A DNA stretch of 64,000 bases from Amphiscolops sp. MND2022 (Eukaryota): positions 19,594,001 to 19,658,000 of the forward strand of contig OZ076409.1 in assembly GCA_964187785.1 (NCBI GenBank), read 5' to 3'. A program made the position numbers and the translations under genes. The notes under the pieces are model-generated. The model saw only the letters and a list, made by a program, of their open reading frames with translations, had not been told where the DNA came from and did not search any database. The number at the start of each line of letters is the position of its first letter. Positions within the stretch are counted from its first letter, which is position 1. Shown in pieces: positions 8,803-37,705 of this stretch.

Positions 8803-8803
8803 G

Positions 8804-8821
8804 TGGCGCTCCTGGGTGGGC
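8804..8821 (+). promoter_or_regulatory. Primer binding site, tRNA-Asn-like
   Basis: TGGCGCTCCTGGGTGGGC lies 1 nt after the LTR and resembles the complement of the 3' end of metazoan tRNA-Asn. Confidence 0.75.
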
Positions 8822-13705: not shown

Positions 13706-15626
13706 TGTGGAAATTTTAGTTTTTGGCGTCTGTAAGAATCCATTGCTTTTGCGCGAAGCCCAGACCACAGACAGAACTAAGTTAATCACGTTTTTAGACC
13801 GTCGGAATAGTGAAAACAGCTGAACAGGCTGACAATAGCATGCTTCGATTTGGCTTATTTGGCAAACTAGGTATTTACTTAGTAAACAAAAGTTCTCCGG
13901 CAAATTTATTGAGCTAGTGAGTGACGTCAGCGAATAAATTGTTCGAATTAGCTAAGTAAGAATCGACCGCTTCGAGCGAATTTTACTGAGTTTTTCTCCC
14001 GTACGAAACGGAGCCATGCTGGCAAAAACACCACCCTCACCTTTTTTCAGAAGGACTTATCCGATCGGGCTGAAATTTGGCATGCATTTACAAGAGGTGT
14101 TTACTCAACTTTCGACTCGGAGTACCCGACCTCGTACCTCCCACCAGGCTCGAGCTATTAGCACGGGAAGTGACCTAGGTCGACCCCCCTACGAACTTAT
14201 CGGCGAAACACGGAATAAGTCATATAGTATTTGGGATTGATAGCCCACATGATATTAGGCCGTTTGTGTATATTTTCGGAACCCTATGAGGAGCACAGAC
14301 CCTAACTAAATAAACCCCGAACGTTATGTAAATAGCCACCAGTTGACCCGAAGATCACGAAACTTACCCAAGAAGTTCACCTAGTAACCCTAGTATACAT
14401 GAAAGATACATTGATCGTCCCACCACGCGCGGAGTAAGGTTTGTGTAAGGCACGCGGGCCCGACCGATAAAAGACTTTTAACCTTGGCTTGTAATACGTC
14501 AAACGAACCGGAATGATCAATGTAGTCGATTACAAACAAGAATGAAGCCGTAATTGTAACCCATGCGGGGGTAACCGCCCTAAGTAAACAAACTATACGC
14601 ATGTCATGTAACTCGAAGACCATTGACCCTAGGACGATATAACTTGGCATGTAGCAACCTTAGATGACGACAAATTATTTCAAGGTCACCGATGGACCTC
14701 AAGGTCATTTTAGATGCAATCCCTGAACGTATAGAGAAACTTACGATAAAACTGATGTAAATCAGCATCCTTGGATGTAAATCAGCATCATTGCGTGATA
14801 ATTTATGCATTTCAGTCAGGTGAGAGAATTCGCAATGCACCGCGCTCAGAATAATAGAAAAGTACCCCTCACACGTGCAGAGCATGTAAATATTGTAATT
14901 GAAGGTCATTAAATTTTTTCTTCGATATTAAAAATATCCTGGTTGACTTGAACTATTATAGAAACGTGAACTTCGGACAAGATGTGAACTTTATGTCGTT
15001 GGCGACAAAGAATTTCTGGCCGAAATATAACTAGGGCGCTGTCATGCCATAAAAGGAATGGAGCTACATGAAGTCAGAAGCATGCAAATAAAAGAGCGAC
15101 ATCGAAACAACAAAAATGCGGGCGATGAACAATTATAATTGAGGCGGAGTTAGAACAGAACCGAGTTAGAAAGCTGGGATCAAGTTGAGTCTTGCGGAGA
15201 CAAGATTCTTGTTCGGAATAACACTCGCGCTTCTCAACTGAGTAAGAAAACTAGAAGAAAGTTGAGTCTCGCGGAGACAATAGACACTTCTAGAAGATTA
15301 CGTTGTCGCCAGTTCAGTAGATTTTCTGACAAGTCCGGGATTTGTGATAAACCTGTAGTTGGATGAATCGAATATTGTTTCTTCGATTGATGAATAGTAG
15401 TTAGACTGATTTGAATTACCCAGTGTTATTTTTGCGATAAAGAAGTGATTGTATTATTCCATTACTCGAAGTTTTTGGAAGACGCGAGCCGATACAGCAA
15501 ATCTGGAGCGAAAAATAGACAGTAACTTCAAGTGAATTGGCTAACTCACTAAAACAACTTTTCTTTCTGCTAAGCTTCCAATTGGAGGTAAAACTCTCTC
15601 CAAGCCATGAATTGGATTTTCTTACA
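13706..15626 (+). repeat. 3' LTR (1921 bp)
   Basis: Direct repeat of 6852-8802 with scattered substitutions and small indels. Confidence 0.92.
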
Positions 15627-16734
15627 GTCCCGAAGACATGAAAAACTAGACAAACAGCCGCTTCACTTTTATAACACTACAATGCTACACTCTAGAGTAC
15701 TAAAATTTAAAGAACCTATTTGACTACCGACACTTTTCAAAGCACTATCTGGTAAAATATTCGTTTTCCAAAAACGTCTCAGGTGCAAAGTCCATTTAAT
15801 TTTGACAAGGATCACAACAATATTTTTTGGTTCACTAGGATCACAACAAACATTTTTACGGAATATAACTGCATTTTGCATTCTTTGAAGGAGTAGTTTT
15901 TTTGAAAGGGTGTGTCAGCTTGTACTCGGTTCTCAGAAAAGGTTGCACTTCGAACGTTCCCACCCTCTGGTCGAGGGGTAATGGTAAATCTCTGTGATAA
16001 CAACGCCAGCATTGTTATTTTCCGACCCCACATTTTATAATTGGGGGAGGAAAATCATGATCTGTGATTCGTTTTTTTTTCAAAGTCTGCCAAAACTCCA
16101 CTTGTCTATCTCCTCTATCGCTAAGAAGGGGAGAAGCTAGCTTAGAAGCTAGAAGCTAGCTTAGAAGAATAATATCTAAAGTTAAAAAGAGATCAAGATC
16201 TAAAATTTCAGGACTGGAATAAGATCTAAAGGGAATAAGATCTAAAATCACTAAATTTTAGATCTTATTCTTTAGATCCTATTCCCACCCTCCCAAAATA
16301 GCTATGGCTCAGTTGGTGAAGGCGAAAAGGGCGGAAGTTATCCCGGTGCTTAGCGGGTGTCTTGTTTTAATTTCCCTGTTTCCCGCGGCAAATTTTTTTT
16401 GCATCCTAGTGTCATTTTGGGAATGCATTCTATGTTTAGTTTAGACTCTCGTATTTGATCATGTTTGCCCTCCAACTAAAATTAAAAACCATTGTAAATC
16501 TTCAATGTTTTGATGAAGTTCGCATGAATCTATGCTCCCGGCAGTTTTGAATAACGTTTCCATTGGGTAGCGCAAATGCAAAAGCTTCTGTCACGTGACG
16601 GTAAATGGACGGATTGCAGTATCGGTTATTTTTTATATTTCTAGGCAACGTTCTTGGGATAACTAGACGAACTGATGAAAGAAAATGAATCGAATGGTGA
16701 ATATCTTATAATTCCCCGTGCTGACAACCCAGGG

Positions 16735-16879: not shown

Positions 16880-17410
16880 TACTGGAAAAACCACAGGATT
16901 AAGTTCTAGAATTATCGAAATACAACTGGAATAAGATCTAAAATTGCCGAAAAAACCACTGGAATCAGATCTTAACTCACTGGATAACCACTGGAATAAG
17001 ATCTAAAAGTACCGAAAAAACACTGAAATGAGATTTTAAATCACTGGAAAACCCACTGGAATAGTCTGGAATAGTCTAAAATTACCAAAAATAACACTGG
17101 AACAAGATCTAAACTCACTAAATAAAACAATGATCTAAGTCTAAAATTACAAATAAAACACTGGAACAAGATCTAAAATCACTGAAAAAACCACTGGTTT
17201 AAATCTAAATTTACAGAAAAAAAAACCACTGGATTAAGATGTAAAATCATTGAAAAAGTCACTGGTTTAAATCAAAAATTACCAAAAAAAAACCACTGGA
17301 ATAAGATTTTAACTCACTGGATAACCATTGGGATAAGATATAAAAGTACCGAAAAAACACTGAAATGAGATCTAAAATCACTGGAAAACCAACTGGAATA
17401 CGTCTAGAAG
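16880..17410. repeat. ~30-bp degenerate tandem repeat
   Basis: Recurring ccactggaataagatctaaaat unit; a related motif occurs at 16170-16285. Confidence 0.8.
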
Positions 17411-17415
17411 TACCA

Positions 17416-20400
17416 CCAAGACGAGAACGTCTAAAGTCGGCGCCATATCTAAGGCTCAAAAAGCGCAGTTTCCAAAGTATGCGTAGGATGTTTTCATCAA
17501 AAACTCTCGTTTTCAAACCTCCGCCCCTCCTTAGTAAATAGCAATAAAGTTCGGATAAACTGTAACGGCAATTTTTTCTTTGCAAAAAAAGTCGCATAGT
17601 GCCGAAAATGTAAAAGAGGGACCGCTCTGGATTTAACATACATTCCGTTGCTAAATCAAACAAGACGGGATCGTCTCAAGTCGGCGCCATATCTAAGGCT
17701 CGAAAATATTCAAAGAACAACTATTGGAAACATTTGGAAAAATTATTTTCAAAAATTTTTTTTTTGAATTTTTTTTTCGAAAAAAAGTATTTTTTTAGAA
17801 AGTCGCACAATGCCGAAAAACTCAAAAAGAGGCCATTCAGGCTCATTAAACGTTTTTACAAACCGAAAACTTCAAAAAAATGCAAGGGGTCCACCCTTTG
17901 ATAGAATCCGAAAATTTTCGAAAAAGAAGTCGCATAGTGCCGAAAAAAACCCAAAGGAGGGACCCTTTGGTCTCACCTGCTGTACTTTTGGAAGCATAAA
18001 AATATTATGGTTTAGTGCGAGAATCGAACCCCCGCTCTCCGGCTTCAGAAATTTAGTCGAAGATGAACAACAGAACAGATGAACAAATTGTAAAAAGTGG
18101 ACCATTCAGAGTGAGATTGTAGGCTGAAAAAGAAAAAAAACTACCCACTGTAATAGTCGGGCTTTTTTCCTTAAGGGAAAAGGCGCCGACTAAAAACTCG
18201 AAGGGGGACCCTTTGGGTACAATAAAAAATTTCCGAAAAAAAGTCGCACAGTGCCAAAAAAATCCAAATGGGGGACCCTTTGGGCACGTCTGGTTTTGTA
18301 GGTTTCCTTGAAAAAGTAAAGAATGAAAGAGGACCCTTTGGATTAAGTTTGCCTTGGTGGGACTTGGCCTTAGGTGGTTTCAGGATTGTTTCTAAAAAGT
18401 GGACCGATCAGTGTGAGGATTGTAGTCTGAAGAAACAAGACGGGAACGTCTAAAGTCGGCGCTACATCTAAGGCTCAAAAAGCGCAAAACATTTTTTTTG
18501 GAAAAATATCTTGAAATTTTTGAAAAATTTTTTCTTTAGGAAAATGTCGCACAGTGCCAAAAAATGTAAAAGGGGGACTCTTTTTGATTTATAAACTTGC
18601 ATTCTGTTGCAGAATAACAAAAAACTCAAAGGGGGGACCCTTTGGGGACGTTAAAAATTTTCGAAAAAAAGTTGCACAGTGCCGAAAAAAAAATCAAAAA
18701 GGGGGCCCCTTTAGTCTCGGCCGGTTTTTTAGGTTACCTTGAAAAAGTAAAAAATGAAAGGAAGGACCCTTTGCACTCAGTTTGCCTTGGACGGACTGGG
18801 CGCCTTAGGTGGTTTCACGATTGCTTCTAAATAGTGGACCGATCAGTGTGAGGATTGTAGTCTGAAGAAACAAGCCGGAAACGGCCAAGTCGGCGCCAAA
18901 TCTAATGCTCAAAAATAGCAAAAGGACTTCAAAATGTTAAAGTATTCTCTTTTACAGCACCCGAAAAACCCAAAAGTTGAACCGAATTGGCGCACCAGAG
19001 GGGACACTTTGAGATTTTTCATCCATTCTGTGGCAAATCATCAAAAAAAATTGGAGGGGCACTTTCGGTGAAAATTTTTTTTGAAAAAAGTCTCACAATG
19101 CCGAAAAAACTGAAAACTCTGTTTTGTCGGAAAACTCCAAAATAATTGAAGGGGGGACCCTTTGGGGAAATTTTTTTTTCAAAAAAAATTCTCACAGAGC
19201 CGAAAATACTCTAAGGGAGTACCCTTTGGTCCCTTTGAGTTTCTTAGATGATGTTAAGATACTACTTCGCAAGCTTTTGCGCCATTATTTCAAATTTGCT
19301 AAGTAAGAATTGTAAGATTTTAAGATTGTAAGAATTGTAAGAAAAGTGGACCGATCATTGTGAGGATTGTAGTCTGAAGAAAAAAAACAGTCACTGCTTT
19401 AGTCGGGCATTTTTCCCTTAATGGAAAAGCGCCGACTAAAAACAAGCCGGGATCGGCCCAAGTCGGCGCCATATCTAAGGCTCAAAAATACCAAAAGGAC
19501 TTCAAAATGTCAAACTACTGGTGAATTGGGGACTCTTTCATGGAATTTTTTTCAGAAAAAGTCTCACAATGCCAAAAAAACTGAAAGGGGGGACCATTTG
19601 GGATTTTTCAAAATCCATTCTGTCCAAAAAAATCAAAAAATTGAAGGTGGGACCCTTCGGTGAAAAAATTTTTTCGAAAAAAAAGTCTCACAGAGCCGAA
19701 AATACTCTTTGGTCCCGTTGAGTTTCTTAAATGACATAAAAATACTACTTCGTAAGCTAAGAATTGTAAGAAATTAAGAAATTGAGAAATTGTAAGATTG
19801 TAAGAATTGTAAGAAAAGTGGACCATTCAGAGTGAGATTGTCAGCTGAAAAAGAAAAAAAGATAAGTGACAGCTATAGTCGGGCATTTTTCCCTTAAAGG
19901 AAAAGCGCTGACTAAAAAACAGTCACTGCTATAGTCGGGCATTTTTCCCTTAAAGGAAAAGCGCCGACTAAAAAACAGTAACTGCTATAGTCGGGAATTT
20001 TTCCCTTTAAGGAAAAGCGCCGACTAAAAAAGCACTTGAATAAAATCTAAAATCACCAAAAAACCACTAGTGTTTAAAATTCCGGCAAAAAACTCACAGA
20101 GCAGAAAATACTCTAAGGGAGTACCCTTTGGTCCCTTTGAGTTTCTTAGATGATGTAAAAATTTTGCGCCAGTATTTCAAATTTGCTAAGTAAGAATTAT
20201 AAGATTTTAAGATTGTAAGAATTGTAAGAAAAGTGGACCGATCAGTGTGAGGATTGTAGTCTGAAGAAAAACAACAGTCACTGCTATAGTCGGGCATTTT
20301 TCTCTTAATGGAAAAGCGCCGACTAAAATCAAGCCGGGATCGGCCCAAGTCGGCGCCATATCTAAGGCTCAAAAATACCAAAAGGACTTCAAAATGTCAA

Positions 20401-20925
20401 ACTATTGGTGAATTGGGGACCCTTTTATGGAATTTTTTTTCAAAAAAAAGTCTCACAATGCCGAAAAAAACACAAAGGGGGGACCATTTGGGATTTTTCA
20501 AAATCCATTCTGTCCAAAAATATCAAAAAATTGAAGGTGGGACCCTTCGGTGAAAATTTTTTTTTTCGAAAAAAAAGTCTCACAGAGCCGAAAATACTCT
20601 TTGGCCCCGTTGAGTTTCTTAAATGATATAAAAATACTACTTCGTAAGCTAAGAATTGTAAGAAATTGAGAAATTGAGAAATTGTAAGATTGTAAGAATT
20701 GTAAGAAAAGTGGACCATTCAGAGTGAGATTGTCAGCTGAAAAAGAAAATAAAGATAAGTCACAGCTATAGTCGGGCATTTTTCCCTTAAAGGAAAAGCG
20801 CCGACTAAAAAACAGTCACTGCTATAGTCGGGCATTTTTCCCTTAAAGGAAAAGCGCCGACTAAAAAACAGTAACTGCTATAGTCGGGAATTTTTCCCTT
20901 TAAGGAAAAGCGCCGACTAAAAAAG
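17416..20925 (-). mobile_element. Cluster of nested and tandem HINE elements
   Basis: caag..ggaacg....agtcggcgccatatctaaggctc ends at ~17418, 17660, 18436, 18870, 19441 and 20330. Hairpin ends agtcggg..ttttcc..ggaaaa..gcgccgactaaaa at ~18155, 19400, 19875-20030, 20287 and 20768-20925. Confidence 0.75.
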
Positions 20926-20987
20926 CACTTGAATAAAATCTAAAATCACCAAAAAACCACTAGTGTTTAAAATTCCGGCAAAAAACT
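19187..20987. repeat. ~900-bp tandem duplication
   Basis: 19187-20092 is repeated at 20093-20987; the junction is at aaaaaactcacaga. Confidence 0.85.
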
Positions 20988-21400
20988 CCAACAAAACGAA
21001 GTTATCGTTATGCATGTGGATTCTCGTTGTCTCTTCTTGAGGCGCTTTCAGGTAATTCAAGCTAGGTGACAAAGGACAATTCTTGTCACCTCACTTTACC
21101 ATTGGCTAACATGGAAAGGTGTTAGTTATAAGTCACGTGACTACACATAATTTCACCGCAAGATACACTGAAACGCATGATATTTGCGGGCTGCTTAATG
21201 TATGTTGTATAATTTATCGCAATTCCATCGCACCTATGAATCATCCAAATAATAATTGACTATTACAAATAATTAAATGGAAAGGTTACGATGAATTTAC
21301 GATAAAACGAAGCAATTAGTCATGATGAAATTGAATGAAATACGTTTTGTATCTATTTCTTGTTTTGATTGCTCGCAGAGTTTAACAGAACAGATAGTTA

Positions 21401-21714: not shown

Positions 21715-21731
21715 GATAGTTATTTAGCAAT

Positions 21732-22759
21732 TGTCGGAACGTGCATCAAGTTCATTTGATGTGGTAATGTTAGGGGCGTTCCCTTCTCTATCATTAGAGG
21801 ATGACTTTTCATTAGACGATATTTTCTCGGTTAGAGCTAGAACTAGATTCGTCAGTTCACTTATTTGTCTGTTCATTTCCGTAAATCTCTGATTTACGGC
21901 TTGACGTTCTGACTCGCCACTGAAATCCAACAGATTTCCATTGTCGAACTCGTTTATTTGTTCTCTCGTGAGAACTTCAGGGACACTACTTTCACTTTCG
22001 GTATCGCTATGTCGGTCAGGTCGGCACATGTGCGTTCGCTGGTTTTCTGCCACTTGAGATCTGGTATTGACCATTTTGAAGAGATATTGGGTTTTTGAGG
22101 TTTTATTGAGTAATTGAGAGAATGGTTAAGTATTCTAGTGATGAAATTATATCAAACTGAGAGGTACGTATTTAGCAAACTGTTCGTCAAACTATCGCAA
22201 AATCTACTGATGGTACAATTTCACTTGGTAGCAATTATGGCGACGTTGGTCACGTGACCACATCAACCAATCACATCGCTATTTTCGTTCGCACCTTTGT
22301 TAGTAATCGCGCAATATTGTCGCAGCACCAAAATGAAATGTAGTTACGTTGCTATGGTTGCATGACTCAATTTGTATAATGATGTGGTTGCACTACTAGC
22401 ATCATATATGTGAATGGTTAATGTATATAATTGTTTACAGGACTGACTGCACTGAAACGAAATCTGATGATGGCGTATCAGCCACATTACTTTCACTTCT
22501 AATTAAAATTCACGAAATTAATTTAAATGACATACGTAACTAATGTGTGAAATATGGGGGATAATAGTAAAGTTATTTAGGGACTGAATAGAAATGATGC
22601 TTTTTAGCAGATTCTAGTTCGAGTTTTATGATGTGGTTGACTTCACCACATTCTTTCCTTTCATCATCATCCTTTTACTGTTTGCATTTGTTTTGAGCTC
22701 AGGTATGCAGGATGGTTGACCACATCCTTGTTTGATATTTTCATGCGTCAGGCATGACA
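21732..22759 (-). repeat. 3' LTR (1028 bp)
   Basis: Matches 35548-36575 apart from about 3 substitutions seen by eye. Confidence 0.97.
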
Positions 22760-23693: not shown

Positions 23694-26600
23694 ATGAGTT
23701 CAACGCCTCAAGTGGAGACGTCTCAGGCTGCGACTGATGTGGCTTCTGTTGTGTTAGCTGCGGAGGGAGTGTTCACTGAGTTGGCACAGTTAAGTTTTTC
23801 TTCGGTGGGCAGTGAATTAACAGCTGCTGTGGAGGAGACTCTGTCAGGAGAGCGTCTAGGAAATTGTTGCCGTTTCGCTGGGAAAGTGACTGCTGCCAAT
23901 AAAGAAGTAGCCAACACGTTATTAGAGATCGCTCTATCGAGTGAATTCCGTGAGTACCCTCAATTTCCAATATTTCGTTGTTCTTTTTCTTTTCGAAGTA
24001 GTAACCAGGGGAGGTTATCTTCCTTCAGAGCATCCTGAATTATGATATGCTAGTATGTGGTTTGCACGGTACTGGCTTGTGGCATGTACTTCCCGGGATC
24101 AAATGCTCTGGGTAACTGATGTGGTAGCAAATTAGGCATTATTGTGCTTTTAGAAGAATTGTCACTCGTAGAGATTGTGAGTTTGCTCCGGAGACTGTTA
24201 GCTTCGAAACGGAGTATTGCTGCCAGTGGTGCTACTGAACTAACTGCTGTGGAGGATCGGCTCAGTTCTGTCCTCGGTGATGAGCGAGGTACGTAGTTGA
24301 TTGTTATCCATTAGGTTGAATATACTTCCAGTCGTAGTTCACTGTTAGGATTGGCGGTATCTTGCATGTAGAATGGTGCACAGCATATGGTCAAAATTAA
24401 GTTGTGTTGTAGGGACTGTTACAGGCTTGCCTGTAACTATTGCTGAGTTGGAGTCATCCTTTCAGCGGATGACGAAAGAATTGGCAGAGACTGTCAAAGC
24501 GATTGTCGATTCCAAAATGGGCGGGCTGGGATCAGTCTGTGCGTTGTCCGTCGAGGAGTTCATCGGAAAGTTGAAAACAGCAATGGAGCACTTGGCTGCG
24601 TCTTCTGTGCCTGGTGGATCTGTCGAGCAAGCTGTGACAAGTGTGCCGTCAGTGCGGTTGGAAGCACCCGGGAGTCCTTTGGATGCCAGTAGTTCACGAT
24701 CTGTCAGCTTGAGTCAAGTGTCCGATGTTCCGACTGCTTTCGCTTGTGTCCGTTCAGTGGCTTCGAAAGAGGAGGGTATCTCCACATCCGCTACTGCTAA
24801 ACCTGGTAAGAAATCTCAGAAGATCATGGGAGGGGTTTTAGTATTAGCACTTAGGTTAAGGATTACGATTTACGACACAAGTTTTTTTTTGGAGTTTGCT
24901 GTTTTCTATTGTAGGTCGCAATAAGAAAGTGAAGACGTTGAAGCCGGCCTATTTCGTTTCTGGTGTGGTGGGGACCTTTGTTGGTTTCCCACGACATAAG
25001 CGCGTAGTCGACGGGTATGCCAGGTGCCTGTTGTACAAAGTCGACCTCAGCATTGCCGGACGTGGTTTGTCTTCCTTGTGGGAGCATTGGCGGGGTGTAG
25101 AACATACCCGTGTGGAGCAGAAGTTTCGCATCATGATGCAGATGCCGTTACTTGATAAGGCCTGTCGGCCAGTGTCAGCAGAAGAAGACAGACGGATTCG
25201 GCGAGCACGGATGTCTGAACCGCCTGTGTTTTTGGAGTCAGAGCTGAGTCTCAGTGTTGATGAGAGGGTTGCCATTGAAGAGGCTGAAGCGGTTGCTGGA
25301 GGAAAACCTGTTTTGGGCGAGGAGAGCGTTTCATTCCTGTGGTCGAGCCAATTTGTGAGCAGTTTCTGTAGTACTACCACATTCAGAGATGTGATGCAAA
25401 TGGTGGAGTCGCGGCGGGACACCATGAATACGGAACTGCGTGTTGAGTGCCGCACCTCAACCTACACACGATGTAAGGTATGTATCTACATAAGTTCATG
25501 TCGATTTCTGTTTGTGTGTGATGAGGTCATCTAAGGGTTGTGGCTGTATGTTTGGGTGTGCAACTATGCGGCTATAGTTGAAATTGTGCAGAAAGAGGTT
25601 GATTTTTTTTGTTTACAGAGTTTGGTTCACTATGGATTGTATCGGTTCGTCGTGGAGCAGTTAGATGAACTGATAGCTCGTGGTAAAGGCGCGAGTGTCA
25701 GTATCCGACGACATGAAGCAGATTGGTTGTGTGAGTGTCATGTGGTGTGCGACTACGCTGTGAAAACAATCGTTCTTGGTGTGGTGGTCGGCGGGACCGG
25801 CTGGGAGAAGCGAATGCTCGATACTGTTGTTCCGGTGTTGTTGAGTCTGCCACATGCTTCTTCTATGAGTGCGTACAGCACGGAGTCAGATACCTGCATT
25901 GGATACGCGCTAGCAGCTTCAGTCGGGATCGTTGACCCTTTGGTTGTGGGTCGAGTGACGCAAGTGTGGTTGTTTGACCTTTTTAGGAAGCACTTTCTTG
26001 CTGAGTTCGTGGGTCTGGATCCCCTCAGCGTTCTGGACTATTTGCGTGTTCGACTAGCCTCCGTGGTGCAGGAGAGAGTTCTGGATCGTTTGCCTCGTTT
26101 GAAACAAGTGAGTATTTTGAACTATACATGTATAGTATGTGGTATATCAAAGGACATTTGATCCAATTTTTTTTGGAGAGGAGGTGTTACTTTGCGGGGT
26201 CTACTTATTTTTCTTGCGTGGATGTTTCTTTTGTTGTTAAAGTTTATACTAGTCGAAGGAAGTGATGTGGTTTCGTTGGCTGCTTTGTGTGCAGAAGTTG
26301 TCGAATACTGGAACGACCTTGCAGTCTATTTTGGAACTCATCGCCCCCATGTGACTTCTGAGTTGCGCCTGGTGACTCCGCTTGAGGGGCAGGTATTCGA
26401 CGATGCCATGATGCGCCCTCGTTTTGCCGTTCTACGTTTCATTTTGGATTTGTGTTAGTATGGTTTTTTTGTAATTGAGTTCAGCTAGGATGTTGGTGGC
26501 TTTTGTCGACTTAACTCTTTATCCCCCCTTTTTTTTAAATGGTACGTTCAAACTAATTATGAGCATGGGTTAACGTGTGTTGCGTTATGTTTACAGTGGC

Positions 26601-27951
26601 CGAAACGTGTCCTCGATTGTGTAGGAGCAGCAGTGATAGTAACATGGTTGCTGAGCGTGAACTGTCACAATTCGTTCGGAGGCTGATGCGTTTAGTGTAT
26701 CCTGAATCATCCATACCTGCTGAGTATGAAGTGGATTCTCTCCTGAAGCCAGTGGATCGCGATTTCTCTACAATAGACGAGAGTCTGTACCAACTGCATT
26801 TTGGTCAGTATTTCCGGTATGACGTTCGCACACAACTCCCGTTCTTCTACCGGTCAGTGCAGAAATTGTTGGGAGTGATATGCACAGAGCTTGTGGGGAC
26901 GTGGCAATGTGGAGCTATTGACCACTTCAGTCTGACTCCTTTCGATCCACTGTTGGTGCATGGTGGGTCTGATGATCGCTGTATTGATGCTTTGGTCGGA
27001 ACCTGTGCTACTCTTTCTCGTTATAATTTAATGAGCGACACCATAGCTGCGAATACCCTGAGACAATATCGGGAAGTGGCCCAATTTTTCAAAACCAAGT
27101 GGACCTTGATTGAAGGCATGCCTGCAGTGGATGATGTAATCACGATGTGGTTCTCGTATCCTTTTTGGTCTCGATGTCAAGAGTTGTTGTCAGTGCTGAA
27201 CCTATTGTTTGGACTTGCAGTTGTCGGAACTTACAACCCTAACATCAGTGATGAGTTTGGTACTGCTATGTCTGTTGATACTCAGCGTTCTAGTCTGCAT
27301 CTTGTCAGGAGTTGGTTTTCGAAGATGTTTGCGGGTCATACCCGTCAATCGCTCACTGGGCTACTACGTGTTTGTTCTACTAGTGATATGCAAGTGTCCC
27401 GATTAACAGATGAGGCGCGGTGCAGGCCTTGGGATCGGTTAATCAAATCAAGTCTGAGTGAAGCTCTCTCTTTGGGAAATGCTGTATTGTCCAATGATCT
27501 AACTACTACCTCAACTGTGCCTATTGATGATTATCGATCGAATGTCTTGGCTCAATTGGATCTTGTGGAGGTATTGAGTCCCCCACGAGCTGGACGGCGA
27601 AGCAGTCCCATTGGTGTCAGTAGTGCTAAGTCAAAAAAGAGTGCACGGGGGCAGATTGATGTGACCTTGGGCATTAGTGCGCCGTTTTCCGTTCAGACAG
27701 CCCCCAAGAAGAAGAGATCCGCCGTTAAGAATCCTAGAGGTGCGAGACGTTGTACGCCTTCAACTAGTCGTGGTGGTGTCCTTACGAGACAGTCAGTTGG
27801 GCGTAGAACAGGAGGGATTCCCCGAGGAACGAAACACTTGCAGTTAGCTAATGTTGTTGGCTCCGATGACGATTCAGCTAGTGAAGTAGTTGTGAGCGGG
27901 AGGAAACGACTGAGCCGTATTCACTTGGATTCGTCTGGATCAGGCAATTAA
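23694..27951 (+). CDS. Spliced 7-exon gene, ~1133 aa, probably derived from a hAT transposase; antisense to the retrotransposon. Exons: 23694-23949, 24154-24288, 24413-24805, 24915-25477, 25619-26107, 26243-26453, 26597-27951
   Basis: Donors GTGAGT, GTACGT, GTAAGA, GTATGT, GTGAGT and GTTAGT; T-rich AG acceptors. Intron phases 1,1,1,0,0,1 all join in frame, giving 3402 nt with no internal stop. Zinc-finger-like motif at 25025-25105 and a basic C-terminal tail (PKKKRS). Confidence 0.88.
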
Positions 27952-29523: not shown

Positions 29524-32500
29524 TTACCAAAGGCTTGTTGATTTGCGTGGCATGAATTTTAAGAGTGTGGGCTTTGCTTGCAGTTCATGAACAAGAAAGT
29601 TGTCAAACGTTTTAGGCACGGGTGCCTCGCGAAGGCTGTATCGGGTAATGCTATTTCGTGTAATTGGTTGGGGTGTTTCGGCAGATGATGCGGTCGATTC
29701 CGCATCATTATTTGGATGGCTTTGTTGCTCAGGCAGTTGATCAGAAGACGGTGTGTCCATTTCATTTGTTTGAATTTCAGCTTCAGATCGATGTGTACTG
29801 TCGGTGTGGACGGTCTCAGGTAGAGGGTTATCCAGAGATGGTACCTCATGAACCCTTTTGTGTTCGTAATAGATTGCTCCATGCTCAGAGTCGACTGTGT
29901 CAGTTTCATTTGTGTCTAGTTCTACTGTGTTTTCAGCGGGAGGTAGCGTTTCGGATGCAGGTAGATTATCGTTGAATATTGATTGATCGTCGATTGCGTC
30001 AGGATCACTATAGTATCGTGATGCATCGTCGTGTATGTCTTCGATGGGATCGTGTGGTACGAATGGGCGAAGCCGCATTCTATGTACGCACTGTGTTCGG
30101 AATGTACCAATTTTTCTGATGATATAGTTTGACTGTGACAGGACTTTAATTACCTTGTAAGGTCCTTCCCATTTGAAAGAATTGAAAGGGATTTTTTCGG
30201 ATTGCTGGCCAATTTTGGGGTTCAGTAAAAAGACAAAGTCGTTTACTTTTAAAAGTGACGCTTGCGCTTTCCTGTCATAGTGCGACTTGTATTTATGGAA
30301 AGCACGGATTATGTTGGTGTGTGTCTCTTTGAATTTCGCATTCAGGTTATCCACTAACGTCTTCGCGTCAACAGCGTTTCGAGGCGGATTGAGGGGGTTG
30401 CTGAACTTCAGATCTAGTGCATTATATGGTACTCGACCGTGGAAGACTTCAGTTGGAGAGCACTTCAGAGTCTGGTGGTAAGTCGTGTTATGTGCCATCA
30501 CAGCGAGATTGACGTATCGGTCCCATTGTGGGCGGTCCACGGAAACGTTTATTTTCAGGACTTGTTTCAAGCGTTGATGTGATCTCTCGATCATCCCAAT
30601 TGTTTGGGCATGTTTAATCGTTGCAAGGGAGACTTTGATCCCGGCTTTGTTCATCAGTTCAGTTATGACTTCGCACGTGAATGCAGAGCCTTTGTCGGTG
30701 ATATTGTGTTTCGGTACATATGCATGTTTTGTGAAAATGTCTAGTAGAGCTTTGACGACGGATTTCGTGTCAGGTTTGCGTATCGGGATAGCAAACAGAT
30801 AACGTGAAAAATAGTCACAGGCCGTCAGAATGTGTGAGTACCCATTAGATCGCGGCAACTCACCTACGAGATCGATTTCAAGAACATCCTCAGGACCGTT
30901 GCAGGGGTCATAAATTGGTTCGAGTGGAGGTATCAGAGTGTTTGGTTTTGCAGGTTTCGTTTTGATACATTCTTGGCAGTTGTTTACAAACTCTTGGACC
31001 TTTTCGGTTAAGTTTGGGACGTAGTACCTTTTCCTTAGTTCACTTAGCATTTTGGAAGCGCCAGGGTGTCCCTGCATGGGGTCGCCATGCATCGTCCTGA
31101 TTATGGCTTCCGTAGTTTCTGGAGGAACTACAATTTGTCGGTAAGCTAGTTTTCCTACGTTGTCAAAAAACTGCCTGTACAACACGTTGTTCACTACTTC
31201 AAGTCTTTTACGGTTCTTGAAAAGATTTTGGAAAAAGGTACTTGCAAAGTTCACTTGGTTCGGAGGGGTTTCCTGGACGGTAAGAATCCTAATTACACGT
31301 TGAACGTCACTGTTTTCGCCTTGAGCCTTAACAATTTCTGAAGTCCCCAAAGGGCATACCTGATTTACCATATGAACCTGGTTCCGTTGGTAGAATCGGG
31401 TGAAGAAAAGGGTCGGGTCGGAAGGCGTCACAAATGGTTGTATCTGGGACCTGATCTCACTGATGCGTCTATCGTACTGTTCCCCGTCTTCGTGGTGTTG
31501 CCGTGGGAACATTGCCAGTAGCGTTTGCATCGTCGGATTTGATGATGTGGTCGCACCAGGTACATCGTGGTCTTCTGGGATGTACTCCTCCTCGTCATCG
31601 TCTTGTTTAGGCGTTTTGGATGCCAGGTCGATTTCAACTTTAAAGACTGGTATTTCGTCGTGGAGTTTGAGGTGGATCCTGTCTTTCGGTCTAATGTCAA
31701 TTCTGGACAGGTAGTCGGCTGCTGGGTTTTCGACGCCAGGTACATGGGCCAGGACGAAGTCGAATTGGATGGCCTGGTCGCAGTAGTTCCACAGTTTCGG
31801 AGGTATTCGCTTTGACTGGAAAAATCTTGTGAGGGCTTTGTTGTCAGTCATGACAATTGTTGGCTTCTTCACTCCCCACAAGATATGAGCGAATTCGTCG
31901 AAGGCGAAGTGCATGGCCAGGAACTCTTTTGCATACATCGTGAGTGACATCTGGCCCTCAGTAAACCTTTGTGAACCAAAGGCTACTGGTGCGTATGACT
32001 TCGTTGGTCCATCATTCGTCTCGGTGTAATCCTCGATCAAGAGAACGTATCCAGCTGCATGCTCGCTAGCATCGCACATGATCACGAGCTGTTTGTCCGG
32101 AAGTGTTAGTCGCAGGGACATCTTGGCTGCATTTGCGAGGTTCTCATTGATGTCGAACATGGCATCTTTGTGGACTTGAGTTAGTTCGAATTTGACGTCT
32201 TTCTGCAGGAGTTTGTAGAGTGGTACAAGTTTTTCAGCTAGGCATGGGATGTATTGGCGGTAGAACTGGACGAATCCAATGTACCGTTGCAAGGACTTCA
32301 CAGACGTTGGTAGTTTGATGTTTTTCAAGAACTTGTCACTTTTTTCCTCGATGGGAGCAACTCCCTTGGAGGTGATGCTTCGTCCCAGAAATTCTATCTC
32401 GGGGTGTCCGAAAGCGCATTTAGCCATTGACAGTTTCAGGCCAGCTTGTCTGATTTTGATGAACACAGCCTCAATATTGTCGACGAGCTCTTCGACATTG

Positions 32501-34464
32501 TTGGCTGCAATGCCGATGTCGTCGACGTATTGGGCACATTTGTCAGCCTTGACCAAGGGGTCCAAGTACTCTCGAACAGTACTGTTGAAGGCTGATAGTG
32601 ATCGGTTCAATCCTTGGGCTAGTCTGAGGTAGGCGAACGTCCTACTTCCAAAGTTGAAAGCGAGTAACTGGACTGACTGTTCATCTGCCATCTGCAAGCA
32701 GTGATATGCTTGTGAACAGTCCAGTTTGCAGAAGTATCGCTTTCCTGCCATGTGCTGCGCTGCATCTGCCATCGTCGTCACCGGATGATTGTGTTGATTG
32801 TAGTCGTTCTTCAGTAGGTGATTGATTCTTCTCAGATCTACGAGGATTCTAAGCTTCCCATTCGGCTTGCGTTGGGCGAAGATGGGTGATGAGTACTTGC
32901 TGTACGGCAATGTTGTGATTATGCCGTACTCCTGCATCAACGCCAATTCAACGAGTAAGTCGTCCTTCAGGTTCGTCGGTGTGGGTAAGCTTTGGGCATA
33001 GACTGGTTCGTCGTGTTTAGGAGTCAACTTTATCTTGAATTCGGTGTTGATTCCTATGTCCAGTCTTTGTCTGGCGAAGATGTCATGGTACTTGACCAAT
33101 AGATCCTCAATTTGTTGCTTTTCGTGAGGGTTCAGTATTGATTGTTCCCACTGGAAGTTTGCCAGAAATTCATGCCGTTGTTCTACGCTTGTTGTTGGAT
33201 CCAGTTTCTCCTCTGCCCTGAGTTTGACGATTTCGTCATAGATTCGTTTTTCAATCCTGTTGAGTTTTGATGGGTCGTCACAAGTCTCAGGGGTAGGGTA
33301 CCATCGTCTATCTGATTTGGTAGTCGGATCCTGGAAGATTTGGTTCAAGACAGCTTCAGCATCATCTGGGTACTGTGAAATCAGGTGTAGTTGGTGATTG
33401 GTCATCGGTTGAAGGTTGTTAGCTTGCTTCGGTGTCATTATCTTGAATGATGCTACCGGTGTACCCACATTGATGGTGATTTGGTAGTCGAGTGGGTTTG
33501 TGATCTGGACATGAGTCCGCCCCTCCTGGGTCTCGCTGAGAGCCGGAGAAACCAACAGGTGTGAGCGTTTTTCGAACGCTGGTAGTCCTTCGGCAGTTCC
33601 AGTGATGTCACCTAGATCGCGTTCAATCACCACTGGGACGAACACTTGTTGGTTGGGTTGGATCACAGTCTTCTGGGTTGTCTTCAGTTCTCTTAGTTTG
33701 TTCTTGAATTTCCCGTTGACTGATCGCAGTTGGAGGGTGATGTCCGGGAATTTGACGATGTTGTTGGCCAGGTCTAGCGTAACGGAGTATTTTTTGAAGA
33801 AAGACATTCCTATAAGTACGTTCCCCATCGTCGGGAGGACCATGAATGTTTCTTCAAATATTTTGCCGCCGATGAAGAATCGAAGCAGGACTTGCTTCTT
33901 GACTGGGACGATGTTTCCGTTGGCAATCTGCACTTTGAACTCCGGGGCAGGGAGTTCCTGGAGGAGGGCGGCTGGGTGGGCTGCAAGGATGCGGCGGAGT
34001 TCCGCTTCTGAGAGAGCACTCTGGATTGCTCCCGTGTCAAGTAGGCCGAAGTTTTCGTATTCTCGGATTTGGAGTGGTACGTAGAGCATTCTGTCCTTTT
34101 TATTGAGTTGGAGGGTGGCACTCAACTGGCGTATTTCGTACTTCGGCTTCTTCTGTTGGTTTTGTGGTTTTGGCGATGTGGTTCGTTTGTCATCATTTGG
34201 TTGGTCAGGCAGTGTGCATTCTGAACTCGGCTGTTGGATGTTGTGGACTTCGGGTCTTCGCTTGGTCTCCCTTGGTTTAATGGTGTAGTTGTCAGTTGAA
34301 TGTCTTGTGATGACAAAGTTAGTAGTCTCCTTAGTATAAGTTGGAGGACGGGACTGCCACCCCGTATGGTTTCCAGTATGTAGTCGAGTCTGAGGAGTAG
34401 TTTGTTGGTGTTGGTTTAGTAGCGCACTTTTGTATGTTTGAGGAGGATGACGTGGCTTTAGAAG
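29524..34464 (-). CDS. pol: Gypsy Pol polyprotein (protease, RT, RNase H, integrase), expressed by -1 frameshift
   Basis: LDTGA; YVDD; CDAS..EFLA..TDNKAL..ADYLSR; HHCC (H-x6-H..CQEC); D,D,E (DLVG, TDKGS, IERSH); WEGPY. The frame stays open upstream of the track start (34125) as far as the slippery site. Confidence 0.97.
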   Translation of the reverse strand, partial: LLKPRHPPQTYKSALLNQHQQTTPQTRLHTGNHTGWQSRPPTYTKETTNFVITRHSTDNYTIKPRETKRRPEVHNIQQPSSECTLPDQPNDDKRTTSPKPQNQQKKPKYEIRQLSATLQLNKKDRMLYVPLQIREYENFGLLDTGAIQSALSEAELRRILAAHPAALLQELPAPEFKVQIANGNIVPVKKQVLLRFFIGGKIFEETFMVLPTMGNVLIGMSFFKKYSVTLDLANNIVKFPDITLQLRSVNGKFKNKLRELKTTQKTVIQPNQQVFVPVVIERDLGDITGTAEGLPAFEKRSHLLVSPALSETQEGRTHVQITNPLDYQITINVGTPVASFKIMTPKQANNLQPMTNHQLHLISQYPDDAEAVLNQIFQDPTTKSDRRWYPTPETCDDPSKLNRIEKRIYDEIVKLRAEEKLDPTTSVEQRHEFLANFQWEQSILNPHEKQQIEDLLVKYHDIFARQRLDIGINTEFKIKLTPKHDEPVYAQSLPTPTNLKDDLLVELALMQEYGIITTLPYSKYSSPIFAQRKPNGKLRILVDLRRINHLLKNDYNQHNHPVTTMADAAQHMAGKRYFCKLDCSQAYHCLQMADEQSVQLLAFNFGSRTFAYLRLAQGLNRSLSAFNSTVREYLDPLVKADKCAQYVDDIGIAANNVEELVDNIEAVFIKIRQAGLKLSMAKCAFGHPEIEFLGRSITSKGVAPIEEKSDKFLKNIKLPTSVKSLQRYIGFVQFYRQYIPCLAEKLVPLYKLLQKDVKFELTQVHKDAMFDINENLANAAKMSLRLTLPDKQLVIMCDASEHAAGYVLLIEDYTETNDGPTKSYAPVAFGSQRFTEGQMSLTMYAKEFLAMHFAFDEFAHILWGVKKPTIVMTDNKALTRFFQSKRIPPKLWNYCDQAIQFDFVLAHVPGVENPAADYLSRIDIRPKDRIHLKLHDEIPVFKVEIDLASKTPKQDDDEEEYIPEDHDVPGATTSSNPTMQTLLAMFPRQHHEDGEQYDRRISEIRSQIQPFVTPSDPTLFFTRFYQRNQVHMVNQVCPLGTSEIVKAQGENSDVQRVIRILTVQETPPNQVNFASTFFQNLFKNRKRLEVVNNVLYRQFFDNVGKLAYRQIVVPPETTEAIIRTMHGDPMQGHPGASKMLSELRKRYYVPNLTEKVQEFVNNCQECIKTKPAKPNTLIPPLEPIYDPCNGPEDVLEIDLVGELPRSNGYSHILTACDYFSRYLFAIPIRKPDTKSVVKALLDIFTKHAYVPKHNITDKGSAFTCEVITELMNKAGIKVSLATIKHAQTIGMIERSHQRLKQVLKINVSVDRPQWDRYVNLAVMAHNTTYHQTLKCSPTEVFHGRVPYNALDLKFSNPLNPPRNAVDAKTLVDNLNAKFKETHTNIIRAFHKYKSHYDRKAQASLLKVNDFVFLLNPKIGQQSEKIPFNSFKWEGPYKVIKVLSQSNYIIRKIGTFRTQCVHRMRLRPFVPHDPIEDIHDDASRYYSDPDAIDDQSIFNDNLPASETLPPAENTVELDTNETDTVDSEHGAIYYEHKRVHEVPSLDNPLPETVHTDSTHRSEAEIQTNEMDTPSSDQLPEQQSHPNNDAESTASSAETPQPITRNSITRYSLREAPVPKTFDNFLVHELQAKPTLLKFMPRKSTSLW

Positions 34465-34470
34465 TTTTTT
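34464..34470 (-). promoter_or_regulatory. -1 ribosomal frameshift heptamer A AAA AAC
   Basis: ccA AAA AAC ttc taa at the end of gag; the -1 frame is exactly the pol frame and is open for more than 110 codons before the protease. Confidence 0.85.
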
Positions 34471-35529
34471 GGATCTTCTACGTCATCGTGTCGTTCTGTT
34501 TCCTCTGCATTTTCGGTGTCATCGTTGGGGTTGTGGGACATCTCATTGGCATTGGCGTTGTAGACCCTGTTGTTGGTCTGTTTGAAGTCCCTTCTAAATT
34601 GTCGGTTTTCCTCGGTGGACTGCTTAGGATACGGGACGCTGCGGTAGGCTGATGTCGCCGTATTCCTATAGTAGCAATCTCGGGCGGAGTGTCCCACTTT
34701 GCCACAGATTTGGCATACAAGTTTGGCGTTGTATTTCGGCCTGATCTCTTGAGGTTGGGCTGGTTGTTGCTGGTTTTGGCCCTGGGGTTTGGTTGGTGCT
34801 TCCTCCCGGAGGCGTTTCCTGCACTCAGCCCACTTGTGACCATGTATTCCGCAGTGGCGACATTGGCCATCAAACTTTCGTTTTGTCTCCCTGGGTTGCT
34901 GGGTTTGGACGTTAGATGTCTGAGGTGTGGTTACATTCGGCTGGGGTGCGCTTATCTGATTGAATGGTTGCGCATTGGTTGTGTTAGGAATGAGCTGCGC
35001 ATATTGACATCTGCGCTGCACAAATATCCTGATCTCCTCCATCGATGCATCGTGTTTGCCTGCCATGGCCAAATCGTTTTGCATTTGGACTGGGAGTTTC
35101 GCAAATAGAAACGTCTCTGTATTATCACTTATCACTGGACTTGTCCCCAAATGCCTGCTTTGCGACCTTTTTGAACTTGTTGAGGAAGTCATTGAAGGTC
35201 TCTGCTGTAGGGTCGTAGCGCATTTGGTCAAATTTCAATGGCATCGTTGCGTAACAGGCTCTGGAAATATGTCAGTTTCTGTTCTTCTGACAATTTGTGT
35301 TGGTGTGGCCTGAGGTGGTTGAGCAGCAGGTGCTCAAACTCGTTGTACTTTTCCCGGTTTCCGCGGAATAGTGGAACTTGTGTGTGCAATATTTTTGGAT
35401 GTTGCACCGTGTCCGTCATCGTGTCCCTCAGATGATGGATTTCAGTGACAATGTCATCGTACTGCTGGGCGGATGACTGAGGGTATTGTGAGGTGGATTG
35501 TCGTGGTGGGTTCGGTAGGTAGTTGGTCG

Positions 35530-35547
35530 TTGGAACTCCTGTCACCA
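35530..35547 (-). promoter_or_regulatory. Primer binding site (tRNA-Leu-like), lying within the gag reading frame
   Basis: TGGTGACAGGAGT follows the 5' LTR end (..CGACA) with no gap; it is one mismatch from the Leu-type TGGTGTCAGGAGT. Confidence 0.7.
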
Positions 35548-36575
35548 TGTCGAAACGTGCATCAAGTTCATTTGATGTGGTAATGTTAGGGGCGTTCCCT
35601 TCTCTATCATTAGAGGATGACTTTTCATTAGACGATATTTTCTCGGTTAGAGCTAGAACTAGATTCGTCAGTTCACTTATTTGTCTGTTCATTTCCGTAA
35701 ATCTCTGATTTACGGCTTGACGTTCTGACTCGCCACTGAAATCCAACAGATTTCCATTGTCGAACTCGTTTATTTGTTCTCTCGTGAGAACTTCAGGGAC
35801 ACTACTTTCACTTTCGGTATCGCTATGTCGGTCAGGTCGGCACATGTGCGTTCGCTGGTTTTCTGCCACTTGAGATCTGGTATTGACCATTTTGAAGAGA
35901 TATTGGGTTTTTGAGGTTTTATTGAGTAATTGAGAGAATGGTTAAGTATTCTAGTGATGAAATTATATCAAACTGAGAGGTACGTATTTAGCAAACTGTT
36001 CTTCAAACTATCGCAAAATCTACTGATGGTACAATTTCACTTGGTAGCAATTATGGCGACGTTGGTCACGTGAACACATCAACCAATCACATCGCTATTT
36101 TCGTTCGCACCTTTGTTAGTAATCGCGCAATATTGTCGCAGCACCAAAATGAAATGTAGTTACGTTGCTATGGTTGCATGACTCAATTTGTATAATGATG
36201 TGGTTGCACTACTAGCATCATATATGTGAATGGTTAATGTATATAATTGTTTACAGGACTGACTGCACTGAAACGAAATCTGATGATGGCGTATCAGCCA
36301 CATTACTTTCACTTCTAATTAAAATTCACGAAATTAATTTAAATGACATACGTAACTAATGTGTGAAATATGGGGGATAATAGTAAAGTTATTTAGGGAC
36401 TGAATAGAAATGATGCTTTTTAGCAGATTCTAGTTCGAGTTTTATGATGTGGTTGACTTCACCACATTCTTTCCTTTCATCATCATCCTTTTACTGTTTG
36501 CATTTGTTTTGAGCTCAGGTATGCAGGATGGTTGACCACATCCTTGTTTGATATTTTCATGCGTCAGGCATGACA
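35548..36575 (-). repeat. 5' LTR (1028 bp), containing the gag start codon at 35890
   Basis: Direct repeat of 21732-22759; the boundary is fixed by the TSD and PBS. Confidence 0.97.
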
Positions 36576-37705
36576 GCAATATCTAGAGAAATATTTAGTG
36601 CTTTGGTTCAAAATGAAACAAGATGTATGAAAAATCTCAAATTTTCATTTTTCGTCTCATCTTTCATTTTCTCATTTTTCTTAGTTCATTGGCTATAGTT
36701 TATAAGGCTATGGCTTATAAGCTTGCGCCCTAAGACTTTGTTGTTAGACGATAGTACCGTGCGGAAAATATCCGAATGAAAAGAAATTATTCAGTAAAAC
36801 AAGAGTTCAAAAGAATTGTCTCTATATTTCATATGGTTACGTTAGCAATGATTTGAGTAAGAGTCGAAACCGTAACAATCAACCTGACAAGATTTCTAGA
36901 GGACTTATTCTGGGAAAGCTCTAATTTCATCAGCAATTATTGATACAATATACCTAAGATTTAAAGCTCAAACTGCAAGAAATATGTTGCCACTGAAATG
37001 TATATTTGGGAAAACAAGCTGAACAGGCAAAACAGGCATCGTTGAAGTATATTTACTTTCAGATGGTATAAAATAACGAGCATTTTGTTGTGCTTTGAAT
37101 ATTTTATGATGTCGCCTTCCGACCGCGCAAACAAGAGCTTTTCTGTGCGTGATTGAGAGGGAAAGTAGCTTGAACAGTTTATGGAAAGATGGGTACTGTT
37201 GTGCTTAATTCTGTGATGTCGAACGTTTGCGCACTATTAAGCCGATACATATCGATCTGTTTAGCAGTACTGCTAATGTATCAGTTAATTGCTCAATACC
37301 ACATAATATAACTCTAAGAGAGGTACGTAAAGTAGAAATAAGCTTCCTCCTACGGTTGTACACAAGGGAACTCCAGACTTCTTCTACTGATGCGTCCTGG
37401 GACACAATACCGTGATGAATTACCTTCATTAGAACTGCACGAGGTAATTTCCTCAAAGGGTATCATTACTGAATCCCCTGTCATATCTATTCTTCCCATA
37501 TTTCGACCAAGATAATTCCTAGCTTACCCCTTGCCATAAAAGGAAGCGCTTAGTCGTCGACTATGTACAAAATTTGGGCAGGCATCAAACTCAAGTACAG
37601 ACAATATAAACTGTGCACTGCAGTTCTATGATGCAGCAGCCATCATTTACCGCAAATTTCGTTACACAAGTCAATTCCCCCTTCTCTCCGTTTGTTAAAT
37701 TCACC

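Follow-up and report, generated by a model that had tools for sequence, protein, structure and literature searches.

The stretch of DNA analyzed in this work (hereafter, the window) comprises 64,000 nt of the genome of Amphiscolops sp. MND2022 (assembly GCA_964187785.1, contig OZ076409.1, positions 19,594,001-19,658,000 of the forward strand), and it harbors a 14.8-kb Ty3/Gypsy long terminal repeat (LTR) retrotransposon on the minus strand, inside which a predicted accessory gene of hAT transposase descent lies on the plus strand. The carrier element is bounded by a 3' LTR (21732..22759, minus strand, 1028 bp, TG...CA) and a 5' LTR (35548..36575, minus strand), which align without gaps and are 99.7% identical, and by this identity the element is young. 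It is flanked by a 5-bp target-site duplication (TSD), GCAAT, at 21727-21731 and 36576-36580. Its pol gene (29524..34482, minus strand) is an open frame of 1652 aa encoding protease (PR), reverse transcriptase (RT), RNase H (RH) and integrase (IN), and its gag gene (34458..35890, minus strand) encodes a CCHC knuckle and shows a stop and a frame break in the window copy. The two TG...CA LTRs, the short TSD and the PR-RT-RH-IN order of pol are those of Ty3/Gypsy elements.

The accessory gene is located antisense to the element, between pol and the 3' LTR, where seven predicted exons (23694-27951, all on the plus strand) join into one stop-free frame of 1133 aa. Exon A (23694..23949, aa 1-85) starts with an ATG that is aligned in close families and ends in a GT donor kept in most families, exon A2 (24154..24288, aa 86-130) has conserved AG/GT borders, and exon B (24413..24805, aa 131-261), rich in Ser and Ala, is the least conserved; a mini-exon candidate at about 23998-24055 was dropped, as it was not conserved. 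Exon C (24915..25477, aa 262-449) encodes a BED-like finger (C299, (C)302, H319 and H325, at 25025-25105) and, after it, a helical segment that aligns with the portion of hAT transposases before the catalytic domain. A predicted RNase H-like core follows in exon D (25619..26107, aa 450-612), with R479 and E538 at the sites of the first and second catalytic Asp and with the CxxH motif lost, and in exon E (26243..26453, aa 613-682) the RW motif is lost and the downstream W635, the W of the W..L..Y motif, is kept. Exon F (26597..27951, aa 683-1133) encodes a predicted helical insertion domain, a degenerate ERGFS region (N896/P897), a basic tail (18 K/R vs. 1 D/E in aa 1011-1085, with KKKR at 1053) and the stop. 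An earlier reading made from the letters alone (the sequence-only reading) had placed a gene at 24915..27330; that gene is real, but this extent corresponds to the core only, which is enlarged here by three further exons on the 5' side and by an extended last exon. The peptides it quoted are all present, namely ARCLLYKVDLSIAGRGLSSLWEHWRGVEH at 25019-25105, with TAC at 25034-25036, ASVSIRRHEAD and AYSTESDTCIG in exon D, and PFDP and FWSRCQELLSVLNLLFGLAV in exon F.

In a DNA alignment of the window copy and 25 diverged loci, the GT/AG sites are aligned while the intron sequence diverges, which holds for families down to about 50% protein identity, and the lengths of exons C (563 nt), D (489 nt) and E (211 nt) recur across families. 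Among 17 pairs tested, the core gave ratios of nonsynonymous to synonymous substitution rates (dN/dS) of 0.05-0.08 in seven between-family pairs and of 0.19 and 0.23 in two near-identical pairs, the other eight being saturated. The values of the core are comparable to those of the integrase (0.04-0.08), and the N-terminal part of the accessory protein gave 0.17-0.33. These ratios point to strong purifying selection on the core and, together with the recurring exon lengths, they argue that the gene is not a product of chance; the alignments thus support a real, old and selected gene with predicted splicing. It could be proposed that the gene is instead a passenger left by a decayed hAT that had landed in the retrotransposon and is replicated with it, as insertions into other elements occur commonly and many of the copies are disrupted. 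However, the low dN/dS with synonymous sites near saturation, the conserved splice sites and the retention of the gene across Gypsy groups with only 40-47% pol identity contradict this explanation, which selection refutes provided that the codon alignments are correct, and which we hold to be extremely improbable.

The gene is not restricted to the window. For exon F, the genome gave 947 candidates, of which 141 are scored matches; through a distant database relative a second accessory group was reached, and through another a third (130 matches among those listed, with 7628 candidates). The pol of the third group is about 40-47% identical to that of the window element, and its accessory protein is homologous across the whole core (exon F, P 99%, E 6e-18; finger exon, E 1e-5; exon D, weak). 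In 78 of 85 loci hand-picked among good matches (28/31, 16/20, 18/18 and 16/16 per set), pol was found on the strand opposite to the accessory gene within the 10 kb fetched. A conserved antisense open reading frame (ORF) between pol and the 3' LTR is thus present in most copies, which is the position of the ORFs known as aORF-3R. The gene layout varies, since the third-group carriers (L160-L164, L170, L175-L190) have a different set of introns, with exons D and E in one frame and an extra break further on; judged by eye, their last intron appears at the same place and in the same phase as elsewhere.

To trace the origin of this protein, candidate transposases were fetched from metagenome contigs with a short motif, yielding 76 motif-bearing frames from 79 loci. 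Against a hidden Markov model (HMM) of the accessory family, 17 of the 76 frames scored at least 15 bits, and all nine frames longer than 500 aa scored 19-45 bits, with a best reversed control of 4 bits. A profile of 32 family rows compared to a profile of the 30 longest fetched frames gave P 98.3%, E 2.4e-14 and a score of 125 over 569 colinear columns, while controls scored 14-21 (10 shuffles) and 20 (reversed). The match runs from the finger to just short of the fetching motif and, because it ends before that motif, it is not circular. Both halves match separately (exons C-E, E 7e-6; exon F, E 1.5e-9), exon F alone was also matched by a second comparison (P 94%, E 1e-7), and the third group taken alone gave P 95%. 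Regarding the fetched frames, seven of the eight longer than 560 aa have all five catalytic-type motifs and the eighth begins after the first motif; they align with hATs of the host (P 96%, E 8e-9), three of which carry terminal inverted repeats (TIRs) and 8-bp TSDs. Against integrase and RT controls, the fetched frames stay at background level. The W..L..Y and DP motifs are kept in the accessory protein, and Ac-type hATs of the host match it weakly (score 23-26 vs. 15.5 +/- 1.5). A language-model search with a natural C+D frame retrieved hAT-type clusters (FAM200/ZBED5, DUF4371) at 0.85-0.89, the ten best family-assigned matches all belonging to the same hAT family or clan as the top match, a result that counts as a lead only. 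The profile alignment to intact DDE (Asp-Asp-Glu) transposases therefore supports the hAT origin put forward by the sequence-only reading, and it argues that the accessory protein derives from a hAT transposase with which it is colinear across finger, core and insertion domain.

An alternative is that the protein is no transposase relative at all and consists of an unrelated finger joined to an RNase H-like protein. Standard searches, which are nearly blind to this protein, leave some room for it: structure scores are at background level, no Pfam match lies above the cut-off, and no named transposase appears among the 144 and 69 database matches described below. Nevertheless, the colinear 569-column match with its controls, and the integrase and RT/RNase H control profiles, which stay at background, make this alternative very unlikely. 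As for the searches themselves, Pfam on single exons gave no match; when Pfam was applied as the sequence-only reading had advised, zf-BED appeared below the cut-off, in favor of its proposal although weakly, and exon F matched no hAT family, against it. Protein Data Bank sequence searches with exon F and further family queries returned nothing meaningful, and an atlas search with exon F gave no usable match. HMMER with exon F over 1.8 billion representatives yielded 144 matches; 26 of these were scanned and contained no hAT Pfam family, and 21 were examined and look like the same accessory family, except for a repeat protein (P0128). Three distant exon F relatives on short contigs (P0085, P0111 and P0130), which are 21-29% identical to their closest counterparts in the present genome, probably come from other families or species, and on visual inspection P0130 seems nearer to the motif that transposases have before the third catalytic site. 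Word-index searches gave 1, 0 and 69 matches, none of them named, and a finger-exon search for related loci in metagenome contigs gave none. With the motif pattern, viral contigs yielded nothing and the host genome a single chance match, but the pattern was too strict, since donor-type transposases do exist in this genome; a DUF4371 search of the genome was blank, although that search is insensitive.

Relatives of the fetched donor-type transposases are indeed present in the host genome, and 3 of 18 host loci with such a transposase have TIRs of the CAGGGT type and 5-bp TSDs (L324, L333, L335), while four loci of a more distant CAGGGT family have 8-bp TSDs (L327-L330). As a TSD of 5 bp defines hAT5, placed within the Blackjack lineage (PMC12730594, in its available text), the donor transposases are probably hAT5/Blackjack-like, a placement made by TSD length. 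The donor-type TIR pattern, the only one searched, was not found in the element or in 11 related loci. Ac-type elements of the host (L125-L127) have 8-bp TSDs.

Predicted structures were obtained with AlphaFold, using for exons C and D a natural C+intron+D frame of a group-2 copy as input. The exon D part of this model displays three strands, helix, strand, helix and strand, which is the RNase H order, with a predicted local confidence (pLDDT) of 67-81 over most of the core, and the exon F model consists of confident helices (pLDDT 82). The Foldseek search suggested by the sequence-only reading returned Hermes in third, fifth and seventh place with the C+D model (best E 0.015), a positive but weak outcome, as other RNase H-like folds stood alongside. 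In a wide structure search, the C+D model matched Hermes 143-264 (Z 6.0, root-mean-square deviation [rmsd] 3.9, 109 residues aligned, rank 10) and the exon F model matched Hermes 367-606 (Z 4.6, rmsd 5.4, rank 19), the latter with 173 aligned residues, the longest row. The Hermes segments matched by both models follow the gene order. The predicted structures therefore agree with a hAT transposase in domain order and do not decide the hAT origin.

Loss of DDE catalysis, another claim of the sequence-only reading, is supported by the aligned catalytic sites, which lack the triad. The two Asp positions that it had pointed out coincide with the sites found in our alignment, R479 and E538; when aligned to Ac-type hATs, the first falls on H481. 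Asp is absent at both sites (0/32 in each case). Acidic residues occur at site 1 only in 13 of 32 proteins, at site 2 only in 6, at sites 2 and 3 in 5, at none in 8, and at all three in 0. CxxH falls on T563-W566 and RW on G618-D620, so both motifs are lost, and the ERxFS motif reported as missing is also lost (ERGFS), the Glu of the third site falling on N896 or P897 in an ungapped extension. It is conceivable that nuclease or transposase activity persists through shifted acidic residues, since Glu stands at site 2 in 11/11 group-1 proteins and at site 1 in 13/13 group-3 proteins, and two sites are acidic in 5/32. But none is acidic at all three sites, the acidic site varies by group, CxxH and RW are gone, and neither the element nor the related loci show the donor-type TIR pattern, so we attribute only a slight chance to this explanation. 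Judging from these alignments, the accessory protein is not an active hAT transposase, though derived from one. The argument for retained dimerization, on the other hand, rests on a Pfam name. The FWSRC segment of the accessory protein is the region that Pfam calls 'dimerisation'. In Hermes, this region extends to the third catalytic residue, while dimers form through a segment N-terminal to the RNase H core, and the equivalent of that segment in the accessory protein would be the end of exon C.

Conservation is highest in the finger. At the codon at 25034, which the sequence-only reading suspected to be a changed TGC, TGC was found in 19/19 other close copies (L002-L020) and TAC in the window copy alone. 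The finger consensus is CxxC-x16-H-x5-H in 32 family proteins of three groups; C299, H319 and H325 are invariant in 32/32, and the second Cys is present in 30/32, the exceptions being the Tyr of the window copy and one gap. Pfam zf-BED fell below the cut-off for eight members of a 36-row alignment (19 rows with the finger exon), with a best E of 0.028, and intact transposases score alike (E 0.025-0.05). These data indicate that the family holds an N-terminal BED-like C2H2 finger, whose conservation suggests that DNA binding is retained.

Antisense ORFs at this place are already known, and the feature for which the literature covered showed no precedent is the traced hAT origin. The aORF-3R group includes gene23 of maize Grande, rice RIRE2 and TRP28 of Retand (PMC7264820, PMC11963269), the last named 'transposase 28' without a known role, and the available parts of these sources, which treat such ORFs of plants and fungi, state that none was found to resemble other transposons. 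A nuclear or DNA-binding role has been proposed for them, and GENE23 of Grande is described as nuclear and with its own antisense promoter (PMC7264820, available text). The gene described here resembles them in place, orientation, retention in most copies and pol-like conservation, and differs in that a whole hAT transposase ancestor can be traced and in its six predicted introns. With hAT5/Blackjack-like transposases, for which Hermes is the structural reference, the protein shares the order of finger, helical segment, predicted RNase H core and predicted insertion domain; unlike hAT transposases, it has no D, D, E, CxxH or RW, and has an extra N-terminus of 260 aa and a basic tail. Unlike hAT transposons, the gene has neither donor-type TIRs nor a TSD of its own and would be moved by reverse transcription. 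ZBED1/DREF and DAYSLEEPER are domesticated hATs with a BED finger and are nuclear DNA-binding regulators, according to the available text of the sources (PMC7471704, PMC3499209), but these are single host genes, whereas the owner here is a multi-copy retrotransposon. Animal LTR elements with captured domains include CopiaMBD (PMC6673714), bdelloid elements with extra ORFs (PMC5408684) and planarian Burro (PMC6431247); as far as the available parts of these papers go, they likewise keep a captured protein under selection, with cargo derived from a host or a virus, and not from the transposase of a DNA transposon as in this case. No LTR element with a hAT-derived gene was found in the literature covered, outside of which are Repbase Reports and subscription journals.

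From the position, exon model, selection, hAT homology and absent DDE residues demonstrated here, we favor, with a probability of roughly 0.55, the interpretation that this Gypsy-borne, predicted antisense gene descends from a hAT transposase, whose catalytic residues it lacks, and likely encodes a nuclear DNA-binding helper for transcription of the element or its escape from silencing. On this view, the region between pol and the 3' LTR would have received an antisense insertion of a hAT5/Blackjack-like transposon. With the gene oriented this way, its splice and poly(A) signals would not be usable on the genomic RNA, and the introns would survive each retrotransposition. Because a live transposase would excise the cassette, TIRs and catalysis would have been lost, and this loss would have fixed the cassette. 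The protein would then be made from its own antisense transcript and carried into the nucleus by the basic tail, where the finger would bind DNA, most likely the LTR or leader of the element itself. As finger, scaffold and basic tail appear to be kept by selection, a nuclear DNA-binding protein is indicated, for which regulation of the element or anti-silencing would be the most likely role, similarly to domesticated hAT regulators and to nuclear GENE23. More tentatively, and with less than even odds, a single ancient capture may have produced an intron-containing regulator that binds its own LTR, shields the element from silencing and drove the radiation of thousands of copies; if true, no earlier antisense ORF of an LTR element would have had both its role defined and its origin traced to a transposase.

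Several observations weigh against the favored interpretation. Of 20 close copies, 13 have a disrupted gene and 7 an uninterrupted seven-exon frame, and the window copy itself has no Cys at one of the zinc ligands. The zf-BED match below the cut-off is all that Pfam gives, with no hAT family for exon F. Group 1, to which the window copy belongs, matches transposases weakly when taken alone (P 21%, E 1e-3), and the strong match depends on the distant third group, which is tied to the others by the exon F homology mentioned above. As to structure, the C+D model has a mean pLDDT of only 54, Foldseek puts Hermes only third amid other RNase H-like folds and gives no match with the exon F model, and the Hermes Z scores of 6.0 and 4.6 are no higher than those of unrelated rows.

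Two other roles are compatible with the same origin. The protein could steer integration, with the finger binding chromosomal DNA or chromatin and anchoring the integrase complex at preferred sites; no part is more conserved than the finger, the transposase scaffold is built for holding DNA ends and target DNA, and CopiaMBD provides a precedent of a captured reader biasing insertion (PMC6673714, available text). Nevertheless, a separate antisense gene with no integrase fusion would need another route into the particle, and the TSD is an ordinary one of 5 bp, so this role seems unlikely. Alternatively, the protein could act on host defense or on RNA, as a decoy or inhibitor of silencing factors or as a Rev-like exporter of unspliced genomic RNA. 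The basic C-terminal tail, the success of the lineage (947 and 7628 first-look candidates) and the retroviral accessory functions proposed for antisense ORFs in the available text of PMC7264820 can be cited for it; yet a retained transposase frame of 700 residues with a finger fits DNA binding better than a decoy, and no RNA-binding domain was found in the Pfam scans, and we likewise give this explanation a low probability. The finger of the protein is defined, its natural variants are numerous and donor-like relatives also occur in this genome, which makes the role of such an ORF directly testable. Where antisense ORFs in this position come from and what they do is a recognized open question in the available parts of the literature (PMC7264820, PMC11963269), to which a traceable origin is supplied here, and it would follow that transposase domestication, familiar from host genomes, can also be achieved by another transposon.

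The history of the gene within the family was approached through trees. Groups 2 and 3 are each a single group on both the integrase and the accessory trees, and group 1 requires two changes on the integrase tree. The accessory-protein tree was made with FastTree and only nine outgroups, which have long branches, and monophyly on it does not prove a single capture. Inside groups the two trees disagree, and the window element compared to six loci (L069, L071, L074, L075, L078 and L079) shows an integrase synonymous divergence (dS) of 0.58-1.07 vs. a saturated accessory dS. From this contrast and the disagreement of the trees, the accessory module may have been exchanged between families. In four loci (L097, L098, L100 and L103), an LTR-like piece and an accessory gene are present with no adjoining pol, and the first gene is faced, on the opposite strand, by another, diverged accessory gene, complete or partial. 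Among these pol-less sequences, C4 and C6 have over 20 kb in common (96-99% identity), and 27 kb of sequence, examined with the flanks L337-L344, showed no LTR pair; such loci may represent a large non-autonomous derivative or a duplicated stretch.

Other features of the window were also observed. The gag frame of the carrier begins about 340 bp within the 5' LTR (35548-35890, minus strand) and crosses the primer-binding site, and a matching open frame is present in the 3' LTR (21724-22125). A second LTR-like pair (6852-8804 and 13706-15628, about 1.95 kb each, 93% identical) surrounds decayed gag-like frames without a Pfam family. Finally, arrays of 32-68 bp and of about 890-bp repeats, an extra integrase fragment and a DUF5641 (BEL/Pao-type) frame occupy 16884-20988, 39868-41668 and 59805-60722.

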